A DNA stretch of 64,000 nt from a virus, in IMG/VR virus record IMGVR_UViG_3300028840_004626, positions 1 through 64,000 of that record. One strand, 5' to 3'. This document shows, in pieces, positions 3,237-19,039 of this stretch. The notes beneath the pieces are model-generated. The model was not told the origin of the DNA. It saw only the letters and a list, made by a program, of their open reading frames with translations, and made no database searches. The stretch's first letter is position 1; every line of letters begins with the position of its first letter. A program made the translations under genes and the position numbers.

Positions 3237-3693
3237 TTACGAAGATACTCCACAACCTCAGCGACCCTGTGTGTTGCTCCGTAATGAAACTGGTGGACTA
3301 GAACGATTTTTCGCAGATGACGATGGGGTTATTCGTGTGCCTCCTGGCAACTGGGAGACAATGCAGGCAGAATATAGTATTCCAGAGGATGTTCGAGTGA
3401 TTTCGGGTAGCGGCATCAACGAAACAGTCATACAGGACTATAGAGAGGAAGTAGAGCTCGAAGAGGCGATCCGGGATGCATTCAATAGGATCGTTCAGGC
3501 ACCAGCGCGTCCGAATACACTATTTCTGCATCCAAGCGTAGCAAGAGAGTTGAATTTATTGAGTGATGAGCGGAGAGCATTGAAGTATGCAAGAAAACAG
3601 CGTAAGATAGGAAAGAGAATGGAAGTGGGAAAGCAGATCCCGTTTTTATTTATTACCCGACCCCAAAGTGCACGGGAGTTGGCGATCACTTAA
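3229..3693 (+). CDS. Small protein with capsid-like peptide and shared C-terminal tag (cassette member D)
   Basis: IRDAFNRIVQAPARPNTLFLHP matches the MCP segment; C-terminal YARKQRKIGKRMEVGKQIPFLF. Confidence 0.75.
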   Translation: MPNYEDTPQPQRPCVLLRNETGGLERFFADDDGVIRVPPGNWETMQAEYSIPEDVRVISGSGINETVIQDYREEVELEEAIRDAFNRIVQAPARPNTLFLHPSVARELNLLSDERRALKYARKQRKIGKRMEVGKQIPFLFITRPQSARELAIT

Positions 3694-3705
3694 GTGGGGA
3701 AGTAC

Positions 3706-4569
3706 ATGTCTGAAGAAAACACTACTGATAAATTAATGAAGCTCAACGGAAGCATAATTAAGTCTGATGGAAGCCACGTAAAGTCTGATTTTTTCAAGTT
3801 TCTTGAGATCAATCTAGATGATTACTCAGATATTGAGTACACCCCAGAAGAGGCCCAGAAGATTCGCTCTCATATGTCTCATCTCTCAACGGGGGCTACA
3901 GCCGTATTGCCCCTCAAGTGTGCGGGGCCTGTTCGCTGCCCATTTGCTGCAAGGTGTCCATTCGTAAAGATAGATAAAGAAAGAAAGAAAAAAGACCCTA
4001 ATGCGAAACAGATGACCCCGGTGACCAAGGATTGCTTAGTGGAGATTAATCTGTTGAACGAGTGGACTAGATTGTATGTAATGGAGTTTGATGTCCCCGA
4101 GAAGAGCTTTTTAGAGCTAATGATGTGTAGAGAGCTGGCAGAGATCGAAGTGATGCTTTGGCGGCTCAACAACAATTTGTCCAAAGAAGGAAATGCAAAT
4201 CTGGTAGACAATGTGGTGATGGGCGTAGATAAAGAGGGCAACCCATTGATGCGCCTAGAGAAGAGCGCTTTCCTAGCAGCAAAAGAGCAACTGACCAATA
4301 GGAAGTCAAAAATCATAAAGGCGATGGTTGGAGATCGACAGGAGAAGTACAAGAAGGAAGCAGCATTGAAGATCAGGGAAGAGAAAGATCCGAGTGTATC
4401 TTCTGCTAAGTTGCGCGGCGAAATCAATCGTCTGCTGAAACAGGCGGAAAGCAAGGTGTTGGCGCTGAAGGAGAGCGAAGGGGATGTCATCGATATCACG
4501 ATGGATCAAATGGACAAGGAGAAGACCGTAACGCCAGAGTCGATAATTGACGAAGTGTCTGAGGAGTAG
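3706..4569 (+). CDS. Cys-cluster protein, putative terminase small subunit
   Basis: CAGPVRCPFAARCP...CLVE Zn-type cluster followed by a helix-hairpin-helix oligomerisation-like region; first gene of the packaging/structural block, upstream of TerL. TerS role is inferred from position and architecture. Confidence 0.5.
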   Translation: MSEENTTDKLMKLNGSIIKSDGSHVKSDFFKFLEINLDDYSDIEYTPEEAQKIRSHMSHLSTGATAVLPLKCAGPVRCPFAARCPFVKIDKERKKKDPNAKQMTPVTKDCLVEINLLNEWTRLYVMEFDVPEKSFLELMMCRELAEIEVMLWRLNNNLSKEGNANLVDNVVMGVDKEGNPLMRLEKSAFLAAKEQLTNRKSKIIKAMVGDRQEKYKKEAALKIREEKDPSVSSAKLRGEINRLLKQAESKVLALKESEGDVIDITMDQMDKEKTVTPESIIDEVSEE

Positions 4570-4577
4570 TGAGTTAG

Positions 4578-7500
4578 TTGCCAATTCGGGATTTCCTGAA
4601 TCTTTCTCAAATCCGACAAGCGACAAGCCCTGACGAATTGCTGAAACGTTTGCAGCTTGGGGCTCAGGCACTTTCTGTACAATTTAGCGAAGAATTCGAG
4701 CCGGAATGGCGCGAACGTGCTGGCAAGTGGGGTATTAGCTACAATCCTAATACTCGAGTACTTAGCGCACCAACCTGGGCCATCCGGTCTAATTTCGAAA
4801 GCCCAGAGGCCATAAAAGAATTATGGGGAGGGCAGAGGCCTGGCGCCGACCGGATTACTCGCTTAGCGCGCGCAGTACAAGCACACGAATTAGCTGAAGC
4901 TTTTTATCTAGAACAATACGGCGCTACTCATCCTCGATTTAGCTCGCATGTGGCGCGTGATGTTATTCGAGCTGAAATAGGCGTAGCCGCGCAGATGGGT
5001 AAGCAAACCCTGTTCGATATGTTGAAATTCAGACAGGTTGAGCTGGATTATATGCAGCAGTCAGGAAGATTCAATCCATCGTTTAGCCCGCCGCGATTTA
5101 CAACATACAAGACAGACATGTTAAGGATCATGCAGGATGTTAGAAATTGGGCAGGAAAGCAATCTGGAACCACGTTTTCTCAACAGCAATTAGCCGAGCT
5201 AAACAAAAATATCATTAGCAATTTTTCTGATTTGCCTATTCACAGATATTACACATCGATGAGCAAAAGACGTATTGGTAAAATCGGGCTGGGAATGGCA
5301 GCAATAGCCGCTGGCTACTATTCTCTTTTTTCTGGATCGGACGATCAATCCAATGTTGTTCAGGGTATGCAGGAGGGCGGCTTTGCATCCCAACTCCGCA
5401 AGCTTGAAACAGACTTTGGTAGCGGATATCAGGGACAAGAGGGCCCATCGTCTTCAACAGCCACCAATATGGCTTTTGGTGCAGTGTTGGGTGGAGCGGC
5501 AGGATTTGGAATGTCTCGTATGCAGGCTCAGGCCATTATCGAAGAAGACCTGAGTGCATATCCTAGATTGCAGGAATTAAGAAAGATGGGCGCCCGTGGG
5601 GGGTTCGCTCTATATGCGCCCGAGTTTACGGAAATTCAGCAAATTCGTAAGCGTATGCCATGGTGGTCTAGGCTCGATCCACAAATGTACAATCCTATTG
5701 AGGCAATGAAGATCCTAAAGACGCCCGAAGAGTTGTTGAGATTTAAGGGTGTTGCCTATCTACATGAACCCCCGAATTTTTCAGAAGAGATTTGGAAACA
5801 GGCGCTTCGATCTAAAAACATCCTGGGTATGTTTGAACCCGAAGTGGGCACAAACAAGTTAGCAACCTATGAGTGGCTGTCTGAACGCCTGGGTGGAGAC
5901 CAGCTCGCATCTCGAATTCATCCACATACGGTTGGATTTGATCGCTTACCTATTGTGCCATCGGCTCATAGGTCTACCCTATTGGCGGAAATTAAAAAAC
6001 TCAATCAGGAATGGCCCCTCATCATAAAACATGCCGAGGGATCTTTACAGAAAGATGTTTATCTAAATGTGGCAAATATTCCCGATGAGGCTCTCGATGA
6101 CATGCTGAAAAACCCCAAAGACTGGGTTGCACAAGCTAAGCTAGATCTTGCGGATGAATTTCGTGTTGTGACAGTAGGGGACAAGCCGGTTTTCACAGTA
6201 CATCGCTGGGGAACCGAAAGAATGAAGCCTTTTACGGAATTTGCCAAGAAGATTCCTGGCCTAGGTCGAGTTCTGGAAGCCAATCGTTTTCCAGAGAACC
6301 TTTTCGGCGTTAGAGACGAAGAACTACGTGGTCGTCTTGAAACTTTCGCAAGCAAGGTATCGAAGCAGCTACCATATGAGGTTGGCGCATTTGACATTGG
6401 ACTTACTACCGAGGGGCAGTTAAAAGTCATTGAGGCCCAGAGATACTTTGGAACAATTAGAAATCCACTAGTTATTGAGCGCATGACCCAGACTCTTACC
6501 GGAGGCCCTTCGTTTTATGGTCGATTAGCTCGGGGTATGGGTGCTGTAGGTGCAGGCATTCTCGTTGGGGCCGGGATGGCAGCACTATTGAGTAGTGATA
6601 CGAATACTGCTGAAATTACCTCAGATCCAAAATTTATTCTGGCCGAAAATAAGAATTTCGATGGGTTTTGGGAAGATGGTATTGCGGCGCAACTTCGCAA
6701 GGCAAATACCCCCTTTGGTTCTGGCGTTAATCAATTTAAAGTATTGCGCGGATTAGTGCGTGGAGCACTGCAGCAATCCAAGGGCGCTGGGCAGAAAATT
6801 AGACAAAAGATTATAGAGAGAGTTGTCACACCCTTTAAAGAAGGTATGCGCGAGAGCATGGGGGCCCCCGCAACTTTTGAAGAAGCGCTACGTCGCGGCA
6901 AGCAAGTGTCTGTTCTTGGCGAAGGTCTGTATGCGGAATCATCTCTTATGAGAACGGTGTTCCAAGGTCAAGAATATCAGTATGTTCGTAAAAGATTGTT
7001 GCCAGATGCTCGTAAACGAGTCGAGGAAATGATTCGTAATCCTAGGGGACGCTATGAGCCCGGGGCCACAGATCTGATGGGTCGTGCAGAGGTTCCGCTT
7101 GAAACATGGCGCAGGTATCTGCGGGGACTGAACCTGGAGACCGAGGCCAATGTAATGCGGCGCATTGAGGACCTCAATATCGCCCCTAAAGTCTATGCCT
7201 CGTCTCGTCGCGAAATATTTATGGAATATATTCCTCATAAAACCCTTGGTAAGGCGATTATGGATGGTGATGACGTTACCCAGGGAATTATGCAGATTCG
7301 CAAGGCTATGGGGCGTCTATCAGAAGAACATAAAATTTGGAACCTAGACCCAACAGAATTTAACATCATGTTTGACCCCAAAAATAAAAAAGCCTTCTGG
7401 TTGGATTGGGGTTTGGCTGAAAGATATGCAAGATATGGGTTTAAGGCACCTCAGGCAACTACGCGGATGCATCAGGTATTTGGCACGTATCTTAAAAGAG

Positions 7501-7859
7501 CTAGAGGGCGCGTTGTATCTAAATCGGCTGCCACAGTTGTTCCTTCTGGCGGGGCTACTGTGGGAGCTGTTCCGGCTGCCCGTACTCAAGCTACAGTTGA
7601 CCTGATGGGGCCAACACAACGTCTTGAGGGGGCAACTGTGCGCGCCATGCCAGTGGGCGAAAACACGGCAGCGCGAGAAGCAGCCGCATTAGCTAAAACT
7701 GTACGTCGCGCAGAAGCATTTCGTGGACACCAGGCAGCTCTATGGGATGCGGCACATAATGGCGGGCAAAAACATACTACTTCGTATGCCAGAAGATTGG
7801 CGCAAGCCCGCGATCCTTTAGGACAAATGCATGATCCGCTTGGGGTAACCAAGAGATAA
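4578..7859 (+). CDS. Polyvalent multi-enzyme protein: HExxE domain + RimK-like ATP-grasp + RIO/Bud32-like protein kinase, separated by repeated linkers
   Basis: HELAE..SSH..E; ATP-grasp motifs NKLATY, PLIIKHAEGS, WVAQ, EFRV, FDI, KVIEAQ; kinase motifs LGEGLYA, VRK, E(alphaC), APKVY, FMEYI, NLDPTEFNI, LDWGLA; two QLRKxxTxFGSG linkers. Confidence 0.8.
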   Translation: MPIRDFLNLSQIRQATSPDELLKRLQLGAQALSVQFSEEFEPEWRERAGKWGISYNPNTRVLSAPTWAIRSNFESPEAIKELWGGQRPGADRITRLARAVQAHELAEAFYLEQYGATHPRFSSHVARDVIRAEIGVAAQMGKQTLFDMLKFRQVELDYMQQSGRFNPSFSPPRFTTYKTDMLRIMQDVRNWAGKQSGTTFSQQQLAELNKNIISNFSDLPIHRYYTSMSKRRIGKIGLGMAAIAAGYYSLFSGSDDQSNVVQGMQEGGFASQLRKLETDFGSGYQGQEGPSSSTATNMAFGAVLGGAAGFGMSRMQAQAIIEEDLSAYPRLQELRKMGARGGFALYAPEFTEIQQIRKRMPWWSRLDPQMYNPIEAMKILKTPEELLRFKGVAYLHEPPNFSEEIWKQALRSKNILGMFEPEVGTNKLATYEWLSERLGGDQLASRIHPHTVGFDRLPIVPSAHRSTLLAEIKKLNQEWPLIIKHAEGSLQKDVYLNVANIPDEALDDMLKNPKDWVAQAKLDLADEFRVVTVGDKPVFTVHRWGTERMKPFTEFAKKIPGLGRVLEANRFPENLFGVRDEELRGRLETFASKVSKQLPYEVGAFDIGLTTEGQLKVIEAQRYFGTIRNPLVIERMTQTLTGGPSFYGRLARGMGAVGAGILVGAGMAALLSSDTNTAEITSDPKFILAENKNFDGFWEDGIAAQLRKANTPFGSGVNQFKVLRGLVRGALQQSKGAGQKIRQKIIERVVTPFKEGMRESMGAPATFEEALRRGKQVSVLGEGLYAESSLMRTVFQGQEYQYVRKRLLPDARKRVEEMIRNPRGRYEPGATDLMGRAEVPLETWRRYLRGLNLETEANVMRRIEDLNIAPKVYASSRREIFMEYIPHKTLGKAIMDGDDVTQGIMQIRKAMGRLSEEHKIWNLDPTEFNIMFDPKNKKAFWLDWGLAERYARYGFKAPQATTRMHQVFGTYLKRARGRVVSKSAATVVPSGGATVGAVPAARTQATVDLMGPTQRLEGATVRAMPVGENTAAREAAALAKTVRRAEAFRGHQAALWDAAHNGGQKHTTSYARRLAQARDPLGQMHDPLGVTKR

Positions 7860-7915: not shown

Positions 7916-8308
7916 TTGGTTGGATGGGCTTTAAAGCGCGCTTTTGGATTAGGCCTGAGTGCCGCTAAGGTTGGCGGTGAGGTTGCGTGGCAGGGTGGCA
8001 AAGCGGGAGTAAAAGCAGCCCCTTATGCTATCCGTGCTGGAATATGGAATGTGGGTCAGTATGCTTCTTTTGCGCTTAAGCATCCAAGAGCTACCATGGG
8101 TATTGGGGCGGCTGGTCTTGGGGCTTACGCCCTGAGTGAAACAATGCCTCAAGATTCCGAGTGGACTGGAGAACAACGCATGGCAGCCGCAGTGGGTCTT
8201 GGCACTCCTTCTACTGGATTTCCTGTAGGACAGGGTGCTACACGGGAAGCTTTTCAGCAAAGTACAGAGGGGTTGGTTTTAGCGCTACACAGAGGGAGAC
8301 GTAGCTAA
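7916..8308 (+). CDS. Gly/Ala-rich membrane-type protein, putative internal virion/ejection protein
   Basis: AGGAGG RBS with TTG start; hydrophobic GxxxG helix MGIGAAGLGAYAL. Confidence 0.65.
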   Translation: MVGWALKRAFGLGLSAAKVGGEVAWQGGKAGVKAAPYAIRAGIWNVGQYASFALKHPRATMGIGAAGLGAYALSETMPQDSEWTGEQRMAAAVGLGTPSTGFPVGQGATREAFQQSTEGLVLALHRGRRS

Positions 8309-8910
8309 TGGCTAGTGCGTGGACATCCTGGGGCAAGGTGCCCGGATCTATTAAGGGCGCAGGTTCCACAATTAAGGGTGGTATCCAACAATATCTAGGC
8401 AGTGCTGCTCATGCCAAGGGAATGAGCTGGGCAGCTGGCGGATATGGGTTTGGCAAAGATATCGCATCTATCCAGAGTAAGGGATGGAGATATTTTGGGC
8501 GCGGAGTAGGCTTTGCCTTTTTAGGGTATGAGGCTTATGCAGGATACCAAAGAGGCGGAATTCTTGGTGCAGCTACGGGGGTTGCTACCCAAGCAGCCAT
8601 CAATTATGGGATTGGGGCAGCATGGGGAGCTATTGGCGGAACTGCTGCGCTAGGAGCTATCGGAACAGCTGCTGCAGTTGCAGCTCCTATCGCCGGAGCG
8701 TGGGCCTACAATAAATATGGGTCACAAGTCGGCAGGGAGACTTTTATGCGACATGCGAGAACTGAGCTTGGGGCTGGGGTTGCAGACCCATTTGGCACCG
8801 TTTCTACGATGAGGCGCAGAAGTGTATCTGCCCTCAATAGTTCAAGATTAAATGGACAAACAGCTCTTGGCAATGAAGCCGCTATGAGCTACAGTCCTTA
8901 TTTTCGCTAG
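8308..8910 (+). CDS. Glycine-zipper membrane-type protein, putative ejection protein
   Basis: Long G/A-rich hydrophobic hairpin (GGILGAATGVA...AAVAAPIAGAW) and basic C-terminus; coupled by TAATG. Confidence 0.7.
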   Translation: MASAWTSWGKVPGSIKGAGSTIKGGIQQYLGSAAHAKGMSWAAGGYGFGKDIASIQSKGWRYFGRGVGFAFLGYEAYAGYQRGGILGAATGVATQAAINYGIGAAWGAIGGTAALGAIGTAAAVAAPIAGAWAYNKYGSQVGRETFMRHARTELGAGVADPFGTVSTMRRRSVSALNSSRLNGQTALGNEAAMSYSPYFR

Positions 8911-8921
8911 GAGGATTTTAA

Positions 8922-9467
8922 ATGCTAACTAAAATGATTCAGGGAGCATTTAGTCGAGGTGCTGTTCAAGCAGCTATAGGTTCTACTGTGGTGGGACGAG
9001 GGACTACGTGGGGCGCAGCAATTGGTAGCGATGCTCTCCGCTATGCTTCTTCTGGGCTAAGTGGATTAGCGGGCATGGGCCCAACAGCTCTGTATTCCAC
9101 CCTTGGCGCAACAGCCGGTGGCGCATGGGGCATGGTATCTGACGATACTTCGGTTTTAGGTGGAGCATTGGCTGGTGCTGCGATTGGTGCTGGTGGATAT
9201 GGCTTGACAAGACTTGCAGCCGGTGGGCTGACCAAGGCTCTCAATCCTATCAAGAGCACGCTAAAGGGTGGCGCTAAGGCTGCTGCTGCTCCTACTGCCG
9301 GTGCTGCCGTAGCAGGTCCAGGTTTTGAGATGAGTGCTTCACGCAGTATGCAACAGAAACAAACGCTTTTAAATTATCTTCAGGGTGAAGCAGCTGCAGC
9401 ACAACAGATGACTTCTCCCAGATATGCAGTTCCCAAGCGGCGCGGATGGTTTAGTCGCAACCGCTAA
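8922..9467 (+). CDS. Glycine-zipper membrane-type protein, putative ejection protein
   Basis: LGATAGGAWG...VLGGALAGAAIGAGGYG glycine zipper; AGGAGG RBS. Confidence 0.7.
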   Translation: MLTKMIQGAFSRGAVQAAIGSTVVGRGTTWGAAIGSDALRYASSGLSGLAGMGPTALYSTLGATAGGAWGMVSDDTSVLGGALAGAAIGAGGYGLTRLAAGGLTKALNPIKSTLKGGAKAAAAPTAGAAVAGPGFEMSASRSMQQKQTLLNYLQGEAAAAQQMTSPRYAVPKRRGWFSRNR

Positions 9468-9487: not shown

Positions 9488-11509
9488 ATGTCGATTAACC
9501 TCAATCAATGCACATCCGAGTGTAGTAGTTGTATTCGTAGATATATTTCCAAACATCGCCTCAAAAGAGGCGATTCCTTTGATATACCCTGTCACGGTAT
9601 TCCTCTCGAATATTTGCCAGCAGATGTCCGCTCTAGCGTGAGCGGAGATCCAGAACTGGCTATTTCTATGATTGATGCTGTTACGTGGGCTGGTAAATTT
9701 TTAGATTGGCATTGTTATGATCCGATAGGAGAACACTGGAAGCGCAAAAGCTTAGAAGGAAGTATGCCAACTGGCTTAGCACAATACGAAGAGGGGGTGG
9801 CACTAGCAGGGAAATCTGTTTTTAATCGGCCCTATCAGGGAGAGATGCTTAGATGTTCGGCAAAATATAAAGTTTTTCGTATTGGGCGGCAAGCGGGCAA
9901 AACAGAAGTGCTGTGTGTTTCGGTTTTACACAATGTTTTTACTCACAAAAATTTTCGTTGCGTAATTATTGCCCCTTATGATTCTCAGGTTGAGTTGATT
10001 TTTGAACGTTTGCGCACCTTTATTGATAACAATGCAATGTTAAGTAATTCAGTGCGGCGCAAGGTTAAAAAACCTACTCATCAAATTGAATTGCATAATG
10101 GTTCTATTATTATCGGTTTTACAGCCGGTACTAAGTCGAAGCAAGAAGCTGGAGCTTCTCGTGGACAACCTGCACACATGTTGGTATTTGACGAGGCAGA
10201 TTACTTATCTGCTGGCGACTTGAATGCTGCCTTAGCTACCATCACAAACTTTCCCGAAGCAACTGTATGGATGTCATCTACTCCAGCCGGTAAACGAGAA
10301 AAGTTCTTTGAATCATGTCGCGACCCGATGTATCGCGAATTTCATTTTCCATCTCAGATTAACCCGAATTGGACAGAAGAAAGAGAGAGATTCTTTAGAA
10401 GTCAATTGACAGAAGACGGATATAAACATGAAATTCTAGCTGAGTTTGGGGAACAAGAAGAAGGGGTTTATCAGAACAAGTATATTGAATTGGCTCAAGA
10501 TGATTATGACTACGGCGACTATAAGCCCAATCCAAACTGGATTTATATGATGGGGGTTGACTGGAACGACGTCAAGATCGGCACAACTTTAGCCGTAGTT
10601 GGATTTGAGCCTGCTTCTGGCTTATTTCGTTTAGTTGACAAAGTCGTTATGACTCGATCTGAGCGTACCCAATTGTCTGCATGCCAAAAGGTAGCCGAAT
10701 TAAACAGGTTTTGGAATCCAACAATGATTTATGTAGATAAGGGATTTGGCACGACACAGATTGAGGTATTGCAGAAGTTCGGTTACGACTCTCTTGCTGG
10801 CGAAGGAGCAAATTCTCCTAATGCTAGATTGCGTAATATCGTTAAGGGATATGACTTTGGTGGTTCTATTGAAATACGAGATCTGTTCACCAAGCAGCCG
10901 ATTTCTAAAAAGGCGAAGCCATTTCTGATTGAGAATTCGGTGCGTCGTTTTGAACAGCTTACATTTAAGTATCCATCGTCAGATGAGTTATTTACAAAAG
11001 CTCTCCAGGGCTATATAGTTAAAAGGATTACAACTACAGGAGTTCCTGTTTATGAGATGCAGGACGAATCTGTTGGAGATCACTTCCTGGATGCGGTAAA
11101 CTTAGCTCTTGTAGCTTTTACTTTAGAGAAGTCAGCATTTGGGGCTCCGAAGCACGAGGCGCGTATTTCATTTTCTGCTGAGATTGGAGCTATACTTAGG
11201 GGAGACAAAGATCCACGCAAAGCATTGCAAGAAAAAGAAGCTCATCGCCCTAAGATGGGGCGTGCCGCAGCCGTAGAGGGTGGATCGGATAGACTAGTGG
11301 TTCCGGAACATGGCGAATTGCCAATGAATACTGCATCTGTTGATGGGGCCAGGGGGCCAGTAAAGCTATGGTCTTGGCCGGGTTTTGGCAGGGATGCTCC
11401 TAGGCCTAGAGTTAGAAGCCTAAGGGAAGCAATGTCAGATGCATCACAGCGGCTTAATAGACAACCTTCTCGCAGGGGTTCATCCCGTCCGAGGAGAAAA
11501 AATATTTAA
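9488..11509 (+). CDS. terL: Terminase large subunit
   Basis: RPYQ Q-motif, Walker A GRQAGKT, Walker B MLVFDEAD, motif III SSTP, nuclease GVDWN...VDKG...DHFLDA. Confidence 0.95.
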   Translation: MSINLNQCTSECSSCIRRYISKHRLKRGDSFDIPCHGIPLEYLPADVRSSVSGDPELAISMIDAVTWAGKFLDWHCYDPIGEHWKRKSLEGSMPTGLAQYEEGVALAGKSVFNRPYQGEMLRCSAKYKVFRIGRQAGKTEVLCVSVLHNVFTHKNFRCVIIAPYDSQVELIFERLRTFIDNNAMLSNSVRRKVKKPTHQIELHNGSIIIGFTAGTKSKQEAGASRGQPAHMLVFDEADYLSAGDLNAALATITNFPEATVWMSSTPAGKREKFFESCRDPMYREFHFPSQINPNWTEERERFFRSQLTEDGYKHEILAEFGEQEEGVYQNKYIELAQDDYDYGDYKPNPNWIYMMGVDWNDVKIGTTLAVVGFEPASGLFRLVDKVVMTRSERTQLSACQKVAELNRFWNPTMIYVDKGFGTTQIEVLQKFGYDSLAGEGANSPNARLRNIVKGYDFGGSIEIRDLFTKQPISKKAKPFLIENSVRRFEQLTFKYPSSDELFTKALQGYIVKRITTTGVPVYEMQDESVGDHFLDAVNLALVAFTLEKSAFGAPKHEARISFSAEIGAILRGDKDPRKALQEKEAHRPKMGRAAAVEGGSDRLVVPEHGELPMNTASVDGARGPVKLWSWPGFGRDAPRPRVRSLREAMSDASQRLNRQPSRRGSSRPRRKNI

Positions 11510-11521
11510 GGGGGAAGGCTA

Positions 11522-11959
11522 ATGGCCCTCAAGCTTTATAAAACTGCTGATAAAGACGATTATTTTGATTCTCTAGACCCATTCACTGTTACGGTAGATG
11601 GGCGCATAGGCGGTATCCAGGATCACAAGATTTATTTGCGTAATGACGATGCCAGTTACTGGTATGATAACGTTTCTGTGTCATTATCAGACACTTCTCC
11701 TTCAAGCCATGTAGATAGCACTCAAGAGGGCTGGTACTGGAAGCTGTCTCAGCGAGATATTGAACTGACCCATGAAGAATGGACAGCCATTACTCCTGGG
11801 ACTACACTTACGCTCACAGAGTCAATAGGAAATTCGCAATTGGGAGATGTTGTGACATTTATTCCAATCTGGGTTCGGGTTGCAATTCCTCGTGGGCAGG
11901 ATATCGAAACTCTGACAACTATCACATTCCAGATTACTGCTACGGAGTATTTGATTTAA
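11522..11959 (+). CDS. Beta-rich putative virion protein (paralogue of 55590..56135)
   Basis: KIYLRNDDAS / IWVRVAIP resemble TIYLRHDGAS / FQLRVQVP of 55590..56135. Confidence 0.65.
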   Translation: MALKLYKTADKDDYFDSLDPFTVTVDGRIGGIQDHKIYLRNDDASYWYDNVSVSLSDTSPSSHVDSTQEGWYWKLSQRDIELTHEEWTAITPGTTLTLTESIGNSQLGDVVTFIPIWVRVAIPRGQDIETLTTITFQITATEYLI

Positions 11960-12684
11960 TGGCTAAAAAAGAAAAAACACATCTGCCCCTCTCTGACGAT
12001 ACCGGACGAGATTTTGCAGATGATGATTTTATTCTCAACTATCGACCCAAGATTGATTTTGTGGCCCCAGAACACGTGCCATCCGAAAAACAACTATCTT
12101 CAGAAGACGTAGATGATGTTCAGCAAAGCTTGCGGGAGAGAACTCGTAATTTGATCGCTGGATTTGAGGCGCTTGGGAAGCTAGCCGAATTGGCAGAAAC
12201 ACGGATTGATCAGAGAATGCAGGCACTTGGAGGCCTGGATATTCATCTTGACCCGTATAAGGACGCAGGGGTTATTATGGCCCTTAAGCGTCGTTTTCCG
12301 GATAAGGTTGATACCTCTGTTATAACTTATGAAGATTACAAAGAATGTGTTAAGGGGCAAAAGAATGCAACAGCGGCACAGCCCGGATTAACAGTGCAAG
12401 ATATGCGTAATGCTCAGGCCGATCCCCTGCGAACAGATTTTGGTGGTTTGGGGCTACGCCCAGGCGAAGCGCGTCCCGAGATTAATTCAACCGGGACAAC
12501 TGTTGAGCCCGTCAACCTGGTTGAGTTTCAGGCGAATGCACTTATCACATTATTTGGTATGCTTAAGGATATGATTACAGATTTGGTTCTCTCATTGATC
12601 CCTGGTGGCGGCGGTGGCGGCGGAGACGACGAGGGTAGCAATGAAGAGGGCGAAGGGGAAGGCGAAGGAGAAGGGTTGCCTTAA
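11959..12684 (+). CDS. Hypothetical protein with poly-Gly and (EG)n acidic tail
   Basis: Likely start is the coupled ATG at 11959 (TAATG), not 11779; ends GGGGGGGDDEGSNEEGEGEGEGEGLP. Confidence 0.75.
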   Translation: MAKKEKTHLPLSDDTGRDFADDDFILNYRPKIDFVAPEHVPSEKQLSSEDVDDVQQSLRERTRNLIAGFEALGKLAELAETRIDQRMQALGGLDIHLDPYKDAGVIMALKRRFPDKVDTSVITYEDYKECVKGQKNATAAQPGLTVQDMRNAQADPLRTDFGGLGLRPGEARPEINSTGTTVEPVNLVEFQANALITLFGMLKDMITDLVLSLIPGGGGGGGDDEGSNEEGEGEGEGEGLP

Positions 12685-14219
12685 TGGAAATTAAGCGCGT
12701 TGTTAAAACACAGAGTCAGTTGCGCAGAGAACTACATGTTCAAAGCCTTGATGACCTCAAGAATGTTGATATCAACGCTGTTCTTGCGGTTGACCCAGAG
12801 CGTACCGACCTAGGAACAAAATTTCCTGATTGCGCATTAATTGCACGCACTTATGAGCGTGGAGCCCACTTTACACCTACCGAAGCGGCTGTTTTTGCCC
12901 CGTTCAATAGACATATCGAAAATCACAAGATTATGAGTCAGTCTGTTGCTAAGATGCTGAGCACCTACATGTTTAATCCAGAAGATATTGTATCTTCGGA
13001 TGTGCAGAAGCTTGCTGCCAAGGCGGGAATCGAGGTGCCCGGAGGTGCTGATTCGGGAACTGGCGGCAAGACAGACGAAGATCTTCAGTCTCTTAATATC
13101 GGCAAGGAGCAGCACTCGACCAAAAATACCGACAAAGGCGGCGGTGGCAGCAATGCCTTTATGGATTGGCTAAGTGAGTGTATTCCTTGCGATTTACGTC
13201 TTGGGGCATGGATAGAATTTAATCCAAATCTTGATTTGCTTGGTATGCTAGAAAACTTTTTAATGGAGGCTCTCAAGTTTTTGACGGGCATCGGTAATAT
13301 TTTGAGTAACCTAGATCTGTTTGGTGATTTCTGTAAACTCTTAGATCTATTGTCTTTTATGTGTATTCCTGACTTACAGCGTATTATTATGTTGTTTATT
13401 TCTCTTCTTACCCTCGAGGCTCCGAATCTAGATTTCTTAATTGGATTCTTGATGTCCCTAGTGGGCCCGTTATTTAGTGCTATTTTTAGTGGCATCATTG
13501 GGCTCTTTGATCAATTCGTACTGCTTGTTGTTAATCCACTAGATTGCATTGTGGATGCTATCAATCAGCAGTTGGCTAAGTTGCCACATGATCCCACTCA
13601 GCCACCACCACAAATTGGCAAAGATAGCATTTTAGCAGAGACTGCTGCAGGATTAGATAACGCATTACGTACACTTAAGCGCACTCTTGAGGGCGGAATT
13701 GCCACAATCAAAGAAAAACTCGATATGTATCTGGGTGAATTTAAGGCCCTTCTGGGCGAAGTTGGCGGTGGAGATTTTAACTATTTGGTGAAAACTTTCG
13801 AAAAATTAACCATGGTGCGCTTGATTGGTTTTATTATTGCCTTGATTTTGGCTTTAACGAAAGGAGATGTGCAGTGTTCCGGAGGTAAAGCCGAAAAACG
13901 GGAAATTGATGCTTTCTTTGAGAACTATCTAAGTCCTAATGGAGCTTTTGATATTTCTATGGATGATGAGGGGAATATCAACATTTCTGAAAGAGTTCCA
14001 GAACAGGCTGATACGCTAGCATCGATTCCTCAGGCCTTGTCAAATATCGAAAATGTGTTTGAATTTGAGGGGGAGGATGTTATCGTTACCGATGCCATCC
14101 GAGACACTGTATCCGCTCTAATTGAACCAGTTAGAGTGAAGACACCATGCAGGTTAGAGGTTTCTGCTGATGAGGCAGACAAGGTCAATCAATATATTTC
14201 GGAACTGAATATGACATGA
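12684..14219 (+). CDS. Helical, Cys-containing, partly hydrophobic protein (putative virion protein)
   Basis: 511-aa coupled ORF between TerL and portal; CIPCDLR/MCIPDL motifs and hydrophobic helices. Confidence 0.7.
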   Translation: MEIKRVVKTQSQLRRELHVQSLDDLKNVDINAVLAVDPERTDLGTKFPDCALIARTYERGAHFTPTEAAVFAPFNRHIENHKIMSQSVAKMLSTYMFNPEDIVSSDVQKLAAKAGIEVPGGADSGTGGKTDEDLQSLNIGKEQHSTKNTDKGGGGSNAFMDWLSECIPCDLRLGAWIEFNPNLDLLGMLENFLMEALKFLTGIGNILSNLDLFGDFCKLLDLLSFMCIPDLQRIIMLFISLLTLEAPNLDFLIGFLMSLVGPLFSAIFSGIIGLFDQFVLLVVNPLDCIVDAINQQLAKLPHDPTQPPPQIGKDSILAETAAGLDNALRTLKRTLEGGIATIKEKLDMYLGEFKALLGEVGGGDFNYLVKTFEKLTMVRLIGFIIALILALTKGDVQCSGGKAEKREIDAFFENYLSPNGAFDISMDDEGNINISERVPEQADTLASIPQALSNIENVFEFEGEDVIVTDAIRDTVSALIEPVRVKTPCRLEVSADEADKVNQYISELNMT

Positions 14220-16750
14220 AATTTTTAGGCCTAAATATTTCTCTTGACCGGGCAGTTGGGGACCGGGTCACAGTATCTTCAGTCAAGCCAGAATCTGGTA
14301 CGATTCCTGTATCTCAGATTCCTTCTGTCAGGCCACGTGTTTTAAAATACGGACAAAGTTATTCGTCTGGCAGAGGGTCGTTTTCTGCGGGCGAATATGA
14401 TTTGGCCGAAATTGGCAAGATTGAGGACACCGATGGTTATGTGCGGCAGGCTTTTAAGAAGAAAGTCGGCCTCATGTTTAAGGAGGGGGTAGGCTATTCT
14501 GGGCCCGATAAGCGTACAGCGCGCTATGTAAAAACTCGTTTTGCTCAGATCAGTCGCGCCACAGGTATTCCCCACGTTCAGCTCTTAAAACGTGTTGCTC
14601 AAAGTCTCATTCGGGTATCTAACGCTTTTATAATCAAAGTTCGTGACGAAAAGGCATCTGGTGGACGTAAGCGTGTGACTGCAGACGGCAAAGAGCTTAA
14701 GCCGATTGCCGGTCTCTTTCCTGCAGCGCCAGAAACAATGCGTTTTGAGATGAATGAGAATACTGGCAAAATCCTTCGCTGGAAGCAGATGCTTCCGGAC
14801 GGCAAGTTTCGGTTTTTCTCAGTTGATGACGTTGTTCATTTTTGCATTGATAGACGCGAAGGCTTTATTTTTGGCGTGCCTACGCTGATTCCGGTTATTG
14901 ATGACATTCGAGCACTTCGTCAAATCGAAGAAAATGTCGAACTGCTGTTATATCAGTATCTCTTTCCCCTGTTTCATTACAAGGTTGGAACAGAAACAGC
15001 CCCAGCAGGTTTTACAGAAGATGGTCTGCGTGAGATTGAGGTTGTTGAGGAACAGATTCAGTATATGCCAGCTGAGGGAGCTATTGTTACACCGGAACGT
15101 CATGAGATTACCGCCATTGGTGCAGAGGGTAGAGCACTAAGAGCAGAAGGATATCTAGAACATTTCAAAAAGCGTATTTTTGCTGGCCTTGGTGTTTCGC
15201 AGGTGGATATGGGCGATGGGGATACCACTAATCGGGCTACAGCACAAACCATGTCTCGTGCTCTGATTGATACAGTTAAAGATGTTCAGGATGAGCTAGA
15301 AGCGCAATGGGATCACGAGGTTATTTCTGAACTTCTTCTTGAATCTACTTTTGGCGACAGGGTTCTCGATGAAGAGTTTATGGTGCATCTGCAGTTTAAG
15401 GAAATCGATCTCCAGAATAAAATGGAATCGGAAAAACATTCTGTAGAGCTGTTTGAGGGGAATGCGATTACGTGGGATGAGCTTAGGGCTGAGATGGGTC
15501 GCGAACCAATTGAGGTTCCAGAAGACCCGGAAGACCAAGATCCGTCCAAATATCCAGATTGGTTCAATACCCACTGGAAGCTCTTTAAGGAACCAGAAAC
15601 TATTATCAAGGCTGTTGACGAGCCCTATTCTGTAGCCGCAAAAATGGCTGCTGAGGCACGTACACTTGGTGTTGTAACTGGTCAGATTGTGAAATCTAAA
15701 GAAGAAACCGAGGCCTCGCAGCGCGCTCAGGCCGAAGCCGATAGGCAGACCAAGATGGCTGTGGCACAATCACGTCCACGTACACGACAAGACAATTTTG
15801 TAGCTGCTTCTTTTAAACAGCTTGAAGAGGATACGGTTCGTCGCGTTCGGGCAAACTTGATTACGCGTGGCCATATGGGGCCAGAACATATCTTGTCGAT
15901 GGCACGTATTTGGGCTGCCGACACCACAGAGCGTCTGTATTCGGTTGCGGTTACTGAATTAATTCGAGGGTTTAATCTGCAGACCGGTAATCGTTCTTCC
16001 GAGAGCCCAAATCTGATTAGTCAGGGCCGCTATGAATTGCGCGAGCGTATTGAGTTTTTTGTCAATAAGTTGATTCACAATATGGTTGCTTTAGCGGAAC
16101 GTAGAATTGACGCTATCAATGGAAATGTTAAACTACCAGAAGTACAGAAAAAAGCGATGGAAGAAGTACACCTTGCTTTTGATTCTGTACGATGGCGCAC
16201 GAAGCTTATTTGGGATATCGAGCTTCGCAAGGCATATAACTACGGTCGAGTTCTGGGCATGAGATTTCTGGGGCTTGATTATTTGCGACTGGATGCTGCT
16301 AATGGTGCCTGTGAGCAGTGTCAGGCTGTTAATGGCCGTTTGATTGAGGTGGCGGCAGCCAACATTAATGATGTTCCGCCGTTACACCCACATAGTCGAA
16401 TGTCAATGACGGCACTGGTTGCAGAGGATGGTTCGAAATTTGTTCCGCCCCGCAACAAGGGCAAGCCGGCCGTTGAGCAAAACGATCCGTCTCTCAGTAA
16501 GAAAACAGGCGTATGTCCCCAGTGTGGCAATACTGTTACTTTGCAGCCACGATCTGGGGCATATTATTGCATGAAGTGCGTTAAAGCATTTCCCCCAGAA
16601 GACGTTGAGGGGGATGTCGATGATGCGACAAAACTTGAACGTTGTGTATTGTCAGTCAAAGCCCAATTGAGAAAAAAGAATCCAGGCATGAGTGAAAAAG
16701 AGATTAAGACTAGGGCCTTTAAGATTTGCAATGCCCAATTGAAAGGATAG
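14216..16750 (+). CDS. Portal protein fused to a C-terminal MuF (SPP1 gp7-like) domain and Zn ribbon
   Basis: Portal motifs (SNAFIIKVR, DDVVHF, FGVP.LIPV, IFAGLGVS, NRATA, ITWDELRAEMGREP); CEQC...VPPLHPHSR MuF motif; CPQCG..CMKC. Confidence 0.85.
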   Translation: MKFLGLNISLDRAVGDRVTVSSVKPESGTIPVSQIPSVRPRVLKYGQSYSSGRGSFSAGEYDLAEIGKIEDTDGYVRQAFKKKVGLMFKEGVGYSGPDKRTARYVKTRFAQISRATGIPHVQLLKRVAQSLIRVSNAFIIKVRDEKASGGRKRVTADGKELKPIAGLFPAAPETMRFEMNENTGKILRWKQMLPDGKFRFFSVDDVVHFCIDRREGFIFGVPTLIPVIDDIRALRQIEENVELLLYQYLFPLFHYKVGTETAPAGFTEDGLREIEVVEEQIQYMPAEGAIVTPERHEITAIGAEGRALRAEGYLEHFKKRIFAGLGVSQVDMGDGDTTNRATAQTMSRALIDTVKDVQDELEAQWDHEVISELLLESTFGDRVLDEEFMVHLQFKEIDLQNKMESEKHSVELFEGNAITWDELRAEMGREPIEVPEDPEDQDPSKYPDWFNTHWKLFKEPETIIKAVDEPYSVAAKMAAEARTLGVVTGQIVKSKEETEASQRAQAEADRQTKMAVAQSRPRTRQDNFVAASFKQLEEDTVRRVRANLITRGHMGPEHILSMARIWAADTTERLYSVAVTELIRGFNLQTGNRSSESPNLISQGRYELRERIEFFVNKLIHNMVALAERRIDAINGNVKLPEVQKKAMEEVHLAFDSVRWRTKLIWDIELRKAYNYGRVLGMRFLGLDYLRLDAANGACEQCQAVNGRLIEVAAANINDVPPLHPHSRMSMTALVAEDGSKFVPPRNKGKPAVEQNDPSLSKKTGVCPQCGNTVTLQPRSGAYYCMKCVKAFPPEDVEGDVDDATKLERCVLSVKAQLRKKNPGMSEKEIKTRAFKICNAQLKG

Positions 16751-16753
16751 CTC

Positions 16754-19039
16754 ATGGCAAAGTCGTTTAAAAATTTCATTAAGTTCGTGGATTCGGTAAG
16801 TTTTAACCCAGAGATTAAATCTGAGGTTAAAGACTATTTTGCCAATCCACAGAACAGCGCTCAGACGTTGCGTATCAGAATTGCTGCAACGCATGCGGGC
16901 AAGATTACCCGTAACAATGGGTTTTACCTACCCCATAAGATGAGATCTGGCGCAGCCTCTTTTACGGATCAGTATCCCAAGCCAATTCAGGTTCACCACG
17001 AATCTCATGAAGATCCAGTTGGTCGAGTGATTCAGGCCAGATACGTTGATCTGAGTGGTGGCTTCCGGGACTCGGTAAAGGATTCGTTCTCAGTATCTAA
17101 AGATAAGCAACTTCAGGATTTTGTTGCTGGCAATATGTCCAACGAAAAACTTATTGATTTTGCGCGAAAAACTTTTATTAACGACGAATCTATCGTTGAT
17201 GATCCCGATTATGAGGGTTTGGGTTATATTGAATTGGTTGCTGATATTTCCGATCCTGCTGCCATTCAAAAGGTATTAGACAAGCGTTATCTGACTGGTT
17301 CAGTTGGGGCTACGACTGACAGCGCTGTATGTTCTGTTTGTAAAACGGATTGGGCTGGGGATGATGGTCGTTGTGAGCATATTCCGGGAAAAGTTTACGA
17401 TAAGAAGAAGTGCGTTCTTATTGCGGGTGATCTCAGGTATGACGAGTGGTCTTTTGTGAACAAGCCCGCAGACACACATTCTTCTGTCATCGAAGTCCAT
17501 AATGGTGGCATGCAGGACTTTGTTAAAGTCGAAAAGGGTTCTCAGGGCGAAGTACCTGAAGTGAACCTCGTAATTGATACTAAGGAGGAAAAAGGTATGT
17601 TGTTTAAAGATGCATTTGCTTTGGTCTCCAAAGACGAGAGATTTCAAGGTCTCGAGAACTTGGAAGACTGCGTGAAGCAACTTCTGGACAGCCAAGAGGA
17701 CCTCAACGAAGAAAGGCTGCTTGAACTGATGTCCGAGCAGCTCACGCAGGAAGAACCTGCCAAGGACGAGGTTCAGGACGAGGCTACCGAGGATGCTTCC
17801 GAAGAATCGGCAGCTCAAGAGGGCACAGACGACACCCAGTCGGTTGAAGATGAAGATCAATCGAATGAGGACGCTTCCGATGAGGAATCAGAAGAAGATG
17901 TGCAAGATGAGGCTGGCGACCAGACTGAAGAGTCTGATGAAGAGGTTGAGGATGATGTTGAAGAGGAGGTTCAAGACGAAGAGGAAGAGGAGTCTGAAGA
18001 AGAGGATACTGATCCTGTAGCAGATTTCTTTGGCGATTCCTATCAAGAACTCATTGAGGACGATGCTTCCGGGCGCGAATATGCTGAAATGCTGTTTGGG
18101 CTTTTGGATGGCGTTGAAGATGAGGGTCGCGACGAAGTCGTTAAAATGATTAACGATGCCAAGCTCTCGTCTAAGCAGCGCAAGGCGTTGCCGAGCTCCT
18201 CGTTTAGTGGACCAGAACGCTCGTTCCCGGTTCCTGATTGTGCCCATTATACTGCTGCTTTGCGTTTGCTGGGGCGCTACAAGGGACCCGGCGACAAGTC
18301 TCGTATTCGTGCATGTATTGAGCGCAAGGGCAAGCGGCTTGGTTGTTCGGGGGCCAAGGATGAAGCGCAAGATGCCGAGCAGATTTTAGACCAATTTTCA
18401 GTTGAATACTTTGATGGGTATTCTGACGATGAATTGATTAAGATGCTAGAAGGCCTTATGGCTTGTCTAGATGAACGAAAATTAGATTGTAAGTGTCACG
18501 ATGAAGATGAAGAAAAGTCTAGATTGCAAGATCGTGTAAGCTCTCTTCAGAAGGAGATTAAGTATCTGCATGAAGACATCGACAATTTGAGCAACGTGTT
18601 GGCTGATTCCGAGAAGACTCTTAGGGGGCTTAAGGTCGAAAAGATTATTGATCTTAAGAAGTTAACCGGTGTTGAGGTAGACCCAGTTAATATCTCCGAC
18701 GAGCTACAGGATAAGTCGTCCTCTGACGTGGACGAAATCCTTAAGGATCTCACGGGTCAAGTTGACATAGATAAAATCGCTGATAAACTAAACTCTGGTT
18801 TGTCAAATAATCCTCAGGGTACCGTGGAAGATCCCACGGCCCAAGTAGACAACACGACAGAAAAAAACAGTGAAGGTAGTAAGCCAAAGTACGATCCGAA
18901 GGTAGCGGAACAAGCTTTGGCGAATTATGTGGAGCTAAGATTTAAGAAAGGTCAGCAAGTAGCAGATGCCTATCTCGCGGATTTGCAGACGCGAGGAGTC
19001 CTGCCGGTGGGCGGGAAAAAAGTTGAGGATAAATCCTAA
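16754..19039 (+). CDS. Prohead protease / scaffold fusion
   Basis: AATHAG, HEDPVGRV, RYLTGSVG (catalytic-Ser region), CSVC..CEH, EWSFVNKPAD; then a long acidic region and coiled coil; lies between portal and capsid genes. Confidence 0.8.
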   Translation: MAKSFKNFIKFVDSVSFNPEIKSEVKDYFANPQNSAQTLRIRIAATHAGKITRNNGFYLPHKMRSGAASFTDQYPKPIQVHHESHEDPVGRVIQARYVDLSGGFRDSVKDSFSVSKDKQLQDFVAGNMSNEKLIDFARKTFINDESIVDDPDYEGLGYIELVADISDPAAIQKVLDKRYLTGSVGATTDSAVCSVCKTDWAGDDGRCEHIPGKVYDKKKCVLIAGDLRYDEWSFVNKPADTHSSVIEVHNGGMQDFVKVEKGSQGEVPEVNLVIDTKEEKGMLFKDAFALVSKDERFQGLENLEDCVKQLLDSQEDLNEERLLELMSEQLTQEEPAKDEVQDEATEDASEESAAQEGTDDTQSVEDEDQSNEDASDEESEEDVQDEAGDQTEESDEEVEDDVEEEVQDEEEEESEEEDTDPVADFFGDSYQELIEDDASGREYAEMLFGLLDGVEDEGRDEVVKMINDAKLSSKQRKALPSSSFSGPERSFPVPDCAHYTAALRLLGRYKGPGDKSRIRACIERKGKRLGCSGAKDEAQDAEQILDQFSVEYFDGYSDDELIKMLEGLMACLDERKLDCKCHDEDEEKSRLQDRVSSLQKEIKYLHEDIDNLSNVLADSEKTLRGLKVEKIIDLKKLTGVEVDPVNISDELQDKSSSDVDEILKDLTGQVDIDKIADKLNSGLSNNPQGTVEDPTAQVDNTTEKNSEGSKPKYDPKVAEQALANYVELRFKKGQQVADAYLADLQTRGVLPVGGKKVEDKS
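17597..19039 (+). CDS. Putative nested in-frame scaffold protein (internal start)
   Basis: Perfect SD TAAGGAGG at 17581-17588, 8 nt before an in-frame ATG located just after the protease domain. Confidence 0.55.
   Translation: MLFKDAFALVSKDERFQGLENLEDCVKQLLDSQEDLNEERLLELMSEQLTQEEPAKDEVQDEATEDASEESAAQEGTDDTQSVEDEDQSNEDASDEESEEDVQDEAGDQTEESDEEVEDDVEEEVQDEEEEESEEEDTDPVADFFGDSYQELIEDDASGREYAEMLFGLLDGVEDEGRDEVVKMINDAKLSSKQRKALPSSSFSGPERSFPVPDCAHYTAALRLLGRYKGPGDKSRIRACIERKGKRLGCSGAKDEAQDAEQILDQFSVEYFDGYSDDELIKMLEGLMACLDERKLDCKCHDEDEEKSRLQDRVSSLQKEIKYLHEDIDNLSNVLADSEKTLRGLKVEKIIDLKKLTGVEVDPVNISDELQDKSSSDVDEILKDLTGQVDIDKIADKLNSGLSNNPQGTVEDPTAQVDNTTEKNSEGSKPKYDPKVAEQALANYVELRFKKGQQVADAYLADLQTRGVLPVGGKKVEDKS

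Follow-up and report, generated by a model that had tools for sequence, protein, structure and literature searches.

The virus record IMGVR_UViG_3300028840_004626 in IMG/VR is 94.5 kb long, with a completeness estimate of about half; the window analyzed here is its first 64 kb (positions 1 to 64,000). The source is an uncultured marine or sediment phage, and the public sequencing runs holding the gene considered here are sediment and seawater metagenomes, with no RNA runs listed among them. The large genes of the record are all on the + strand. One of them, at 4578-7859 (+), is a single uninterrupted open reading frame (ORF) of 1093 amino acids (aa), designated P0001, which is located inside the head and packaging block of a myovirus. 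P0001 is a chain of independently folding enzyme modules connected by conserved linkers, and it occupies a fixed slot among the head genes. Its features, with the evidence for each (HMM, hidden Markov model; pLDDT, predicted local distance difference test score), are:

4578..7859, + strand: whole ORF P0001, 1093 aa; TTG start, GAGGAG Shine-Dalgarno sequence at 4561-4566
4830..5072, + strand: HExxE module core (residues 85-165), by conserved residues; the N-terminal domain is residues 1-225, nucleotides (nt) 4578-5252
5256..5441, + strand: linker copy 1 (residues 227-288); linker HMM E 1.6e-25, alignment, pLDDT <50
5592..6521, + strand: ATP-grasp ligase including the pre-ATP-grasp domain (residues ~339-648); K427, K484, E527-x-R529, R543, D606, E619-x-Q621
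6513..6731, + strand: linker copy 2 (residues 646-718); linker HMM E 1.5e-12, alignment
6885..7442, + strand: truncated protein-kinase core (residues ~770-955); G781-x-G783, K805, E856, D924, N929, D943-W-G
7533..7805, + strand: conserved C-terminal tail (residues ~986-1076); motif ...Q...W..A..GG..H

The TTG start is the first codon past an in-frame TAG. The GAGGAG sequence lies 11 nt 5' of it and is directly abutted by the stop codon of the preceding gene, p291. The start is credible because alignments of homologues begin at residue ~12. Promoter and terminator scans gave results at the level of shuffled sequence, with no above-chance signal dividing the P0001 gene from its neighbors.

A family of shuffled enzyme chains

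Searched alone, P0001 has no PHROG match, no relative in 50,697 deposited phage genomes (tblastn, megablast), and none by word-indexed protein search; a locus search seeded with P0001 alone was likewise empty, and a more typical family member found no match in the deposited phage genomes either. There are sub-threshold matches to Pfam R2K_2 (E 0.0023), NCBIfam Bud32 (E 0.01), and casein kinase 2 (E 0.1), the last of these spanning the catalytic loop and DWG. Folded in full length from its single sequence, the protein had a pLDDT of 36, which is uninformative.

An exhaustive phmmer search yielded 285 representatives at E<1e-3, with 35 at E<1e-30, all of them metagenomic. The matches cover parts of P0001 separately: residues ~250-660, ~760-950, or ~12-180, and very often ~235-288, one of the linkers, alone. 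Counts of linkers and of HExxE, ATP-grasp, and kinase modules given below refer to the best 150 of these 285 relatives; the module frequencies are biased, both by the seeding of this list with P0001 and by the use of a linker pattern to fish out the related loci.

The relatives combine one to seven linkers per protein with a shuffled set of cargo modules. A kinase is found in 118 of the 150, usually as the last module, and an ATP-grasp domain in 37. An SNase nuclease is present in 15 of 33 relatives scanned, and further cargo includes DEDD/RNase T and PolB-type exonucleases, Cas4-like and RecE-like nucleases, RNase H-like domains, a zinc peptidase, and DnaJ. Shuffled cargo in orthologues had been expected in the initial annotation of this DNA; it is what was found, with exchange taking place at the conserved linker. 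P0001 is a member of a large, cassette-built family of multi-enzyme proteins whose only known carriers are uncultured relatives of the cultured phages 0305phi8-36 and ME3.

The linker peptide

The linker is a stretch of ~40-60 residues with the core N..G..G.A...R...T.FGSG, two copies of which connect the three modules of P0001. Copy 1 begins with an Ala/Gly-rich hydrophobic helix (residues 233-253), followed by a degenerate motif ending ...R..L.T.FGSG; copy 2 has a hydrophobic helix at 650-673, a 13-residue insert, and then a motif ending ...QLRKANTPFGSG. An iterated linker HMM detected 413 copies in 145 of the 150 relatives, one to seven per protein, with the conserved core F-S-G-K-D-D-x-Y-N-T-I-E-G-L-x-H-G-G-x-A-x-x-x-R-K-x-x-T-D-F-G-S-G-W/Y. 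The key positions and their conservation are N (88%), G (93%), G (95%), R (94%), T (85%), and then F (98%), G (97%), and S (99%). Both P0001 copies retain N, G, G, A, R, T, and FGSG, and have lost the Y-N-T-I-E-G-L-x-H consensus.

P0001 is the only protein with a linker in the 94.5-kb record. No Pfam family matched the linker among 60 relatives scanned, and its profile had no match to PDB sequences. In ~185,000 prokaryote species genomes, a DNA pattern for the linker gave 64 single matches, approximately the number expected by chance, and none of these is a linker by HMM; there is therefore no prophage, and no clue to the host.

Several observations indicate that the linker is where modules are exchanged. 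Of 60 internal ends of local alignments with at least 55% identity, 53 are within a linker or no more than 15 residues from one, compared to 30% for random positions. In one case, the protein from locus L035 and relative P0081 are 99.2% identical over 491 residues, an identity that ends exactly at ...TDFGSG; past this point the two are unrelated until their common C-terminal tail. Linker cores average 49% identity between phages whose large terminase subunits (TerL) are 35% identical, a figure biased upward since the loci were chosen via the linker. From this core conservation and the position of the breakpoints, the linker can be described as both a constrained peptide and a joint for cassette swapping: it defines the family and marks where relatives exchange modules.

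The hydrophobic part of the linker is less constant. Ala/Gly/Leu-rich segments precede both P0001 linkers, with Kyte-Doolittle means of 1.27 and 1.83 over 19 residues. In the family, a hydrophobic segment (at least 1.0) precedes 40% of linkers, against a background of 7%; transmembrane-like hydropathy (at least 1.6) is reached at 13% of linkers, and half have no hydrophobic segment at all. With a helix ahead of only ~40% of copies, what stays constant in the linker is its polar motif.

At 6774-6797 (residues 733-740), ahead of the kinase, most relatives have a second, shorter T.FGS..D half-motif resembling the end of a linker; it is degenerate in P0001. Linker-like T-I-E-G sites were also sought in the other head proteins of the phage, with uninformative results.

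The enzyme modules

The initial annotation had recognized three catalytic-looking modules in this one ORF. All three are in the places it gave, none of them by chance: H103 of the HELAE motif is at nt 4884, the catalytic part of the ATP-grasp domain covers residues ~400-645, and the kinase covers ~770-955, with D924..N929 in NLDPTEFN followed by D943-W-G.

The first module has ~80 residues, with HELAE at its core. It occurs in 64 copies in 55 of the 150 relatives, up to three per protein, and most often directly ahead of a linker and kinase. Across these 64 copies H103, E104, E107, H124, E133, and R152 are near-invariant, and H-E-x-x-E is kept in 63-64 of 65 aligned copies. It has no Pfam match and no PDB sequence match by profile. 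The putative metal site first proposed (HELAE...SSH...E) is conserved, and it is not the HExxH of zincins: a zincin metallopeptidase was rejected, as the motif is H-E-x-x-E and no peptidase model matched. LPD23, an Atlas look-alike suggested for the N-terminal domain (on 44% of one cluster, with a score of 0.82), does not rise above chance. The module looks catalytic or metal-binding, with no known family matched.

The second module was modeled with AlphaFold as residues 224-722, using an alignment of 36 sequences. The model has pLDDT >90 over residues ~323-653 and shows the three-domain ATP-grasp fold (pre-ATP-grasp, RAGNYA, and protein-kinase-like domains). Foldseek matched it to D-Ala-D-Ala ligases, LysX, ArgX, RimK, DcsG, and PsnB (probability 1.0, E ~1e-8). 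A structure search independent of Foldseek gave 40 ATP-grasp entries with Z from 13.6 to 10, covering model residues 116-425: ArgX at 13.6 (238 residues, root-mean-square deviation 4.0), LysX/ArgX at 13.4, RimK at 11.8-12.3, Ddl at 11-12, glutathione synthetase at 11.6, and Cdc123 at 9.7. The best of these matches are among enzymes that extend a protein's C-terminal carboxylate.

Residues K427, K484, E527-x-R529 (E527-F-R529 in P0001), R543, D606, and E619-x-Q621 are invariant in 27-36 relatives. The ATP-grasp catalytic set is accordingly present as K427, K484, D606, and E619, with ExN replaced by ExQ (Q621) throughout the family; K427 is, by inference from the model, the inter-domain-linker lysine. 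An ExR arginine marks the clade of ATP-grasp ligases that form peptide or amide bonds (PMC4431377), and E527-F-R529 is this signature. The module has the fold, both lysines, the ExR arginine, and the Asp and Glu metal ligands in common with LysX/ArgX, RimK, and Ddl, but is only 10-16% identical to them and matched none of their Pfam or NCBIfam models. It differs also in having ExQ rather than ExN, a loop without glycines, and a position between the linkers of a phage chain. The RimK-type assignment of the initial annotation is thus sound as to the ATP-grasp fold, which is confident, and not as to RimK: no RimK model was matched at E<=1 in Pfam or NCBIfam, the similarity is structural only, and the fold is generically LysX/ArgX/RimK/Ddl-like.

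The only Pfam matches for this part of the protein come from the R2K clade (CDC123, R2K.2, R2K.3; Burroughs, Zhang, and Aravind, 2015, PMC4431377), of which R2K.2 is found in phages and is a predicted protein modifier. P0001 scores 18.3 bits on R2K_2 (PF18299), against a gathering cut-off of 26.2; two of 27 relatives match it, with a best E of 2.3e-4, and a single relative has a weaker match to R2K_3 (E 0.011). Neither the ssxGbGl loop nor the inter-domain lysine is present in the R2K clade (PMC4431377), whereas the relatives of P0001 have S-A-L-G-x-G-V-type loops and an invariant K427. R2K membership was rejected on these grounds, the score being below cut-off and the classical loop and pre-RAGNYA lysine being kept in the family; the R2K_2 hint is a nearest-model effect. 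Cdc123, the R2K member in the structure search, is also a weaker match than LysX or RimK. The module is a complete carboxylate-amine ligase of an undescribed family, and is probably active.

For the kinase, the family profile matched eukaryotic-type protein kinases in the PDB, including DAPK1 and EGFR, at E 5e-17 to 1e-12. These alignments span the Gly-rich loop to the DFG equivalent, ending at chain residue ~170 of ~280; Pfam Pkinase matches in relatives similarly cover model positions ~3-153 of 263. The protein kinase-like residue set is complete in P0001 (Gly-rich loop, VAIK Lys, alpha-C Glu, D..N, and DFG Asp), and K805, E856, D924, N929, and D943 are kept in 120-125 of ~125 family copies, G783 in 124 of 126, and G781 in 101 of 125. 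The domain ends ~12 residues past DWG, and is followed by a low-complexity stretch and then the family-specific tail. A canonical Hanks-type kinase was rejected, there being no complete C-terminal lobe (activation segment/APE, helices F-I).

The resemblance to RIO and Bud32 kinases seen in the initial annotation is loose; the catalytic D..N and DWG it listed are intact. P0001 scores 15 bits on Bud32 (cut-off 199) and does not match RIO1; relative P0031 scores 38.5 bits on RIO1 against a cut-off of 22, but its ABC1 and Pkinase scores are similar. Relatives match Pfam ABC1, Pkinase, and RIO1 (at up to 1e-12 among the three), as well as APH and OspG_kinase; ABC1 reaches up to 5e-11 and RIO1 1.2e-09, the latter above cut-off. 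The small core is common to RIO, Bud32, ABC1/UbiB, and OspG, and the family's catalytic loop D.H.GN is as in these groups; P0001 itself differs in having D-P-T-E-F-N as its loop, in reaching no model cut-off, and in its early end and family-specific tail. It is best described as a minimal protein kinase with all catalytic residues present, probably active.

The C-terminal tail is found in 66 relatives, at or near the C-terminal end where mapped, with H1066 in 67 of 67 sequences.

Genomic context

A degenerate DNA pattern for the linker motif identified 33 loci in IMG/VR, many with two or three matches per ORF. Many of these loci are cut by contig ends; wherever it was reached, the gene order is p291, linker ORF, (p130) p200 (p181), TerL, p145, p511, portal. 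A relative with 30-37% identity in these proteins has the same order. Around P0001 the neighboring genes are:

3694..4569, + strand: p291, 291 aa, homologous to 0305phi8-36 gp112 and ME3_9
7916..9467, + strand: three small ORFs (130, 200, and 181 aa), between P0001 and TerL
9488..11509, + strand: TerL; phrog_2 E 2.6e-37, Pfam Terminase_6N
14216-16750: portal
16754-19039, + strand: protease/scaffold homologue, 761 aa; residues 33-248 match 0305phi8-36 gp123, E 1e-22
20485-21738: major capsid protein
25693-27579: tail sheath

TerL, portal, protease/scaffold, capsid, and sheath together identify the head and packaging block of a myovirus. The isolates closest by TerL (28-33% identity) are jumbo myoviruses, namely Moorella MTATph1, Bacillus 0305phi8-36, and Acinetobacter ME3. 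The product of 16754-19039 is likely, from its match to gp123, to be a prohead protease with a long C-terminal extension. P0001 had been placed between putative small and large terminase genes; the TerL assignment is solid, and upstream p291 obtained no terminase assignment, YonG and Terminase_4 (Atlas leads, scores 0.80-0.84) being at chance level.

In the cultured phages 0305phi8-36 and ME3, a p291 homologue is present along with TerL and portal, and the linker protein is absent. In 0305phi8-36, the equivalent slot encodes gp113, gp114, and gp116, annotated as virion proteins by mass spectrometry.

Some other features of the region may be mentioned. At locus L023, the p291 homologue (3548-5314, - strand) has 588 aa, double the usual length, and lies directly upstream of a 759-aa linker protein; it may be a fusion or have an extra domain. 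The 200-aa ORF (p200; 8308-8910, +) is found in 24 related loci and was not found in the TerL regions searched in 0305phi8-36 and ME3. Its conservation is confined to the C-terminal ~25 residues (T167, R169, S172, G188, E190), and its product is a candidate for the small terminase, or may be a partner for the linker protein. The 181-aa ORF (8922-9467, +), directly upstream of TerL, has a glycine zipper, G62-x3-G66-x3-G70..S73..G80..G85-A86, that is invariant in 13 sequences from related loci; this sequence suggests a small membrane or oligomeric protein. TerL (9488-11509, +) has an N-terminal extension of ~110 residues ahead of the ATPase domain, and longer TerL ORFs in relatives (1056 aa at L033, 1043 at L028, 1018 at L021) hint at inserts or fusions. 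Just past TerL on the + strand, ORFs at 11522-11959 (145 aa) and 11779-12684 (301 aa) overlap by 180 nt in different frames; the 145-aa ORF is conserved in related loci, and the overlap could reflect a frameshift or a miscalled start. In the tail region are two very large + strand ORFs, at 31619-35497 (1292 aa) and 36103-42051 (1982 aa), which could be tape-measure or fiber candidates.

Possible functions

The closest described counterparts of P0001 are the polyvalent proteins of phages and conjugative elements, which have two to fifteen unrelated domains per polypeptide in variable architectures, and are taken into the capsid for delivery along with the DNA, often via a MuF head domain (Iyer, Burroughs, Anand, de Souza, and Aravind, 2017, PMC5512222). 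The P0001 family has this type of architecture: several unrelated catalytic domains, varying in content between members, encoded beside the head genes of a phage with a portal-terminase system. There is a further likeness in the kinase, which lacks the C-terminal lobe and has its active site, as kinases of phage polyvalent proteins have lost the C-terminal subdomain and kept the active site (PMC5512222). There are also differences. The repeated conserved linker defines the P0001 family, while the words “linker” and “transmembrane” do not occur in the polyvalent-protein survey (PMC5512222); ATP-grasp ligases are not among the cargo it describes, the term appearing there only for RNA ligases; and Pfam scans of P0001 and relatives turned up neither MuF nor LPD nor any other domain associated with polyvalent proteins. 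Delivery is described for polyvalent proteins; for the P0001 family we infer it from gene position.

Polymorphic toxin systems offer a second comparison, in that variable modules are recombined at a conserved boundary. In the P0001 family, by contrast, the joints are internal and repeated, there are several cargo modules rather than one C-terminal toxin, and the context is that of phage head genes. Neither immunity genes nor stand-alone spare cassettes were seen in the 94.5-kb record.

The explanation that accounts best for the whole, and which we think fairly probable though far from certain, is that this linker-jointed modular chain encoded in the head block is a polyvalent effector, loaded into the capsid and delivered. 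The gene would probably be expressed along with its head-gene neighbors. Its product most likely enters the capsid and is delivered together with the phage DNA, to act on macromolecules of the host or of competitors; the linker may also act as a processing or loading signal. Both ATP-using enzymes are probably active, since their catalytic residues are kept: the ligase would couple amino acids or peptides to a carboxylate, and the kinase would phosphorylate proteins. Virion association is suggested by analogy, from the virion proteins of the 0305phi8-36 slot, the prohead protease/scaffold homologue, and a kinase truncated as in polyvalent proteins.

A number of points count against this explanation. 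Packaging, injection, late expression, and host-protein targets are argued from gene position. The polyvalent protein of the initial annotation is borne out in its multiple modules, head-block position, and shuffled cargo. Pfam scans of P0001 and its relatives revealed no MuF or other known head-anchoring domain. The cultured relatives are without the linker protein; having no P0001 homologue, their virion proteomes therefore bear on the slot only and not on the P0001 gene. The P0001 linkers are degenerate, with SNVVQGMQE (copy 1) and NKNFDGFWE (copy 2) in place of Y-N-T-I-E-G-L-x-H, and AlphaFold gives the linker no confident fold (pLDDT <50) beside a confidently folded neighbor, a prediction that would fit a peptide read by a partner, not a domain. 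Both glycines of the Gly-rich loop of the P0001 ATP-grasp module are replaced (by Q and D), and the ligase could be impaired by this loss, which looks like a lineage-specific change. Finally, the module frequencies are skewed by the P0001-seeded list and the linker-fished loci.

The alternative that survives best, although it is rather doubtful, is that P0001 is a polyprotein precursor, its linkers being processed either by the prohead protease or by self-cleavage between the invariant G and S of FGSG, so that separate enzymes, some with a hydrophobic helix, are released in the capsid or in the host. It is compatible with a delivered effector, adding one step. A conserved peptide of ~40 residues, unstructured in the model, is what would be expected of a site read by a partner; its Ser is 99% invariant within F-G-S-G; and the linker core is better conserved (49%) than TerL (35%), with the upward bias already described. 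Prohead proteases of the T4 and phiKZ types cut x-x-E sites. The common T-I-E-G stretch resembles such sites, and a protease/scaffold homologue is encoded at 16754-19039. In P0001 itself, however, T-I-E-G has Q or D in place of its Glu, and E replaces the subsequent His; a bare protease site would not require ~10 invariant positions; and natural gene fission at linkers is not demonstrable, as proteins apparently starting inside a linker are indistinguishable from miscalled fragments.

It is unlikely, somewhat more so than cleavage, that P0001 is an unpackaged cytoplasmic enzyme chain, made late and acting in the infected cell on targets such as DNA ends or phage or host proteins during packaging, the linker being no more than a flexible connection and a stretch of homology at which cassettes recombine. 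This would account for the module-swap breakpoints at the linker, for the many DNA nucleases (SNase, DEDD, Cas4-like, RecE-like) among cargo encoded beside terminase, for the lack of a known head-targeting domain, and for the lack of an above-chance promoter or terminator between the gene and its neighbors. But conservation of the linker at the protein level, across TerL identities of ~30-35%, exceeds what a DNA homology patch would need; this reading does not explain why the C-terminal tail is conserved or why the slot among head genes is fixed; and the equivalent slot in 0305phi8-36 encodes virion proteins.

A multi-pass membrane protein, with linker helices anchoring the enzymes at the host membrane, is very improbable: hydrophobic segments do precede both P0001 linkers and are enriched in the family, but conventional topology is unlikely because the single helix between ATP-grasp and kinase would put one of two ATP-dependent enzymes outside the cytoplasm, half of linkers have no such segment and only 13% reach transmembrane-like values, and the invariant part is the polar motif rather than the helix.

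Returning to the delivered effector, one more specific proposal can be made, quite tentatively: that the linker is a dual-purpose “plug,” serving for loading by the head machinery and/or as a cut site (for the prohead protease, or for self-cleavage at FG|S) and also as a recombination joint, so that any cassette joined to it becomes deliverable. If true, phages would possess a natural, modular means of cargo delivery of a kind undescribed for them, with two enzyme cargoes: the HExxE module and an ATP-grasp ligase acting on proteins.

Implications

A whole clade of jumbo-phage relatives, uncultured and from marine and sediment sources, reserves a slot next to the terminase for a chain of interchangeable enzymes. 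The peptide that joins them is absent from Pfam and PHROGs and has no sequence-profile match to solved structures. As a short peptide with ~10 invariant positions, it is a tractable handle on cargo loading, processing, and exchange, and might serve as a tool to package foreign proteins into capsids. If the chain is delivered, its ATP-grasp ligase would add peptide tags to proteins, which, to our knowledge, no phage effector has yet been shown to do. Delivered into the host, the chain would be a new and very plastic arsenal for these phages, of nucleases, minimal kinases, an ATP-grasp ligase, and a widespread HExxE enzyme.

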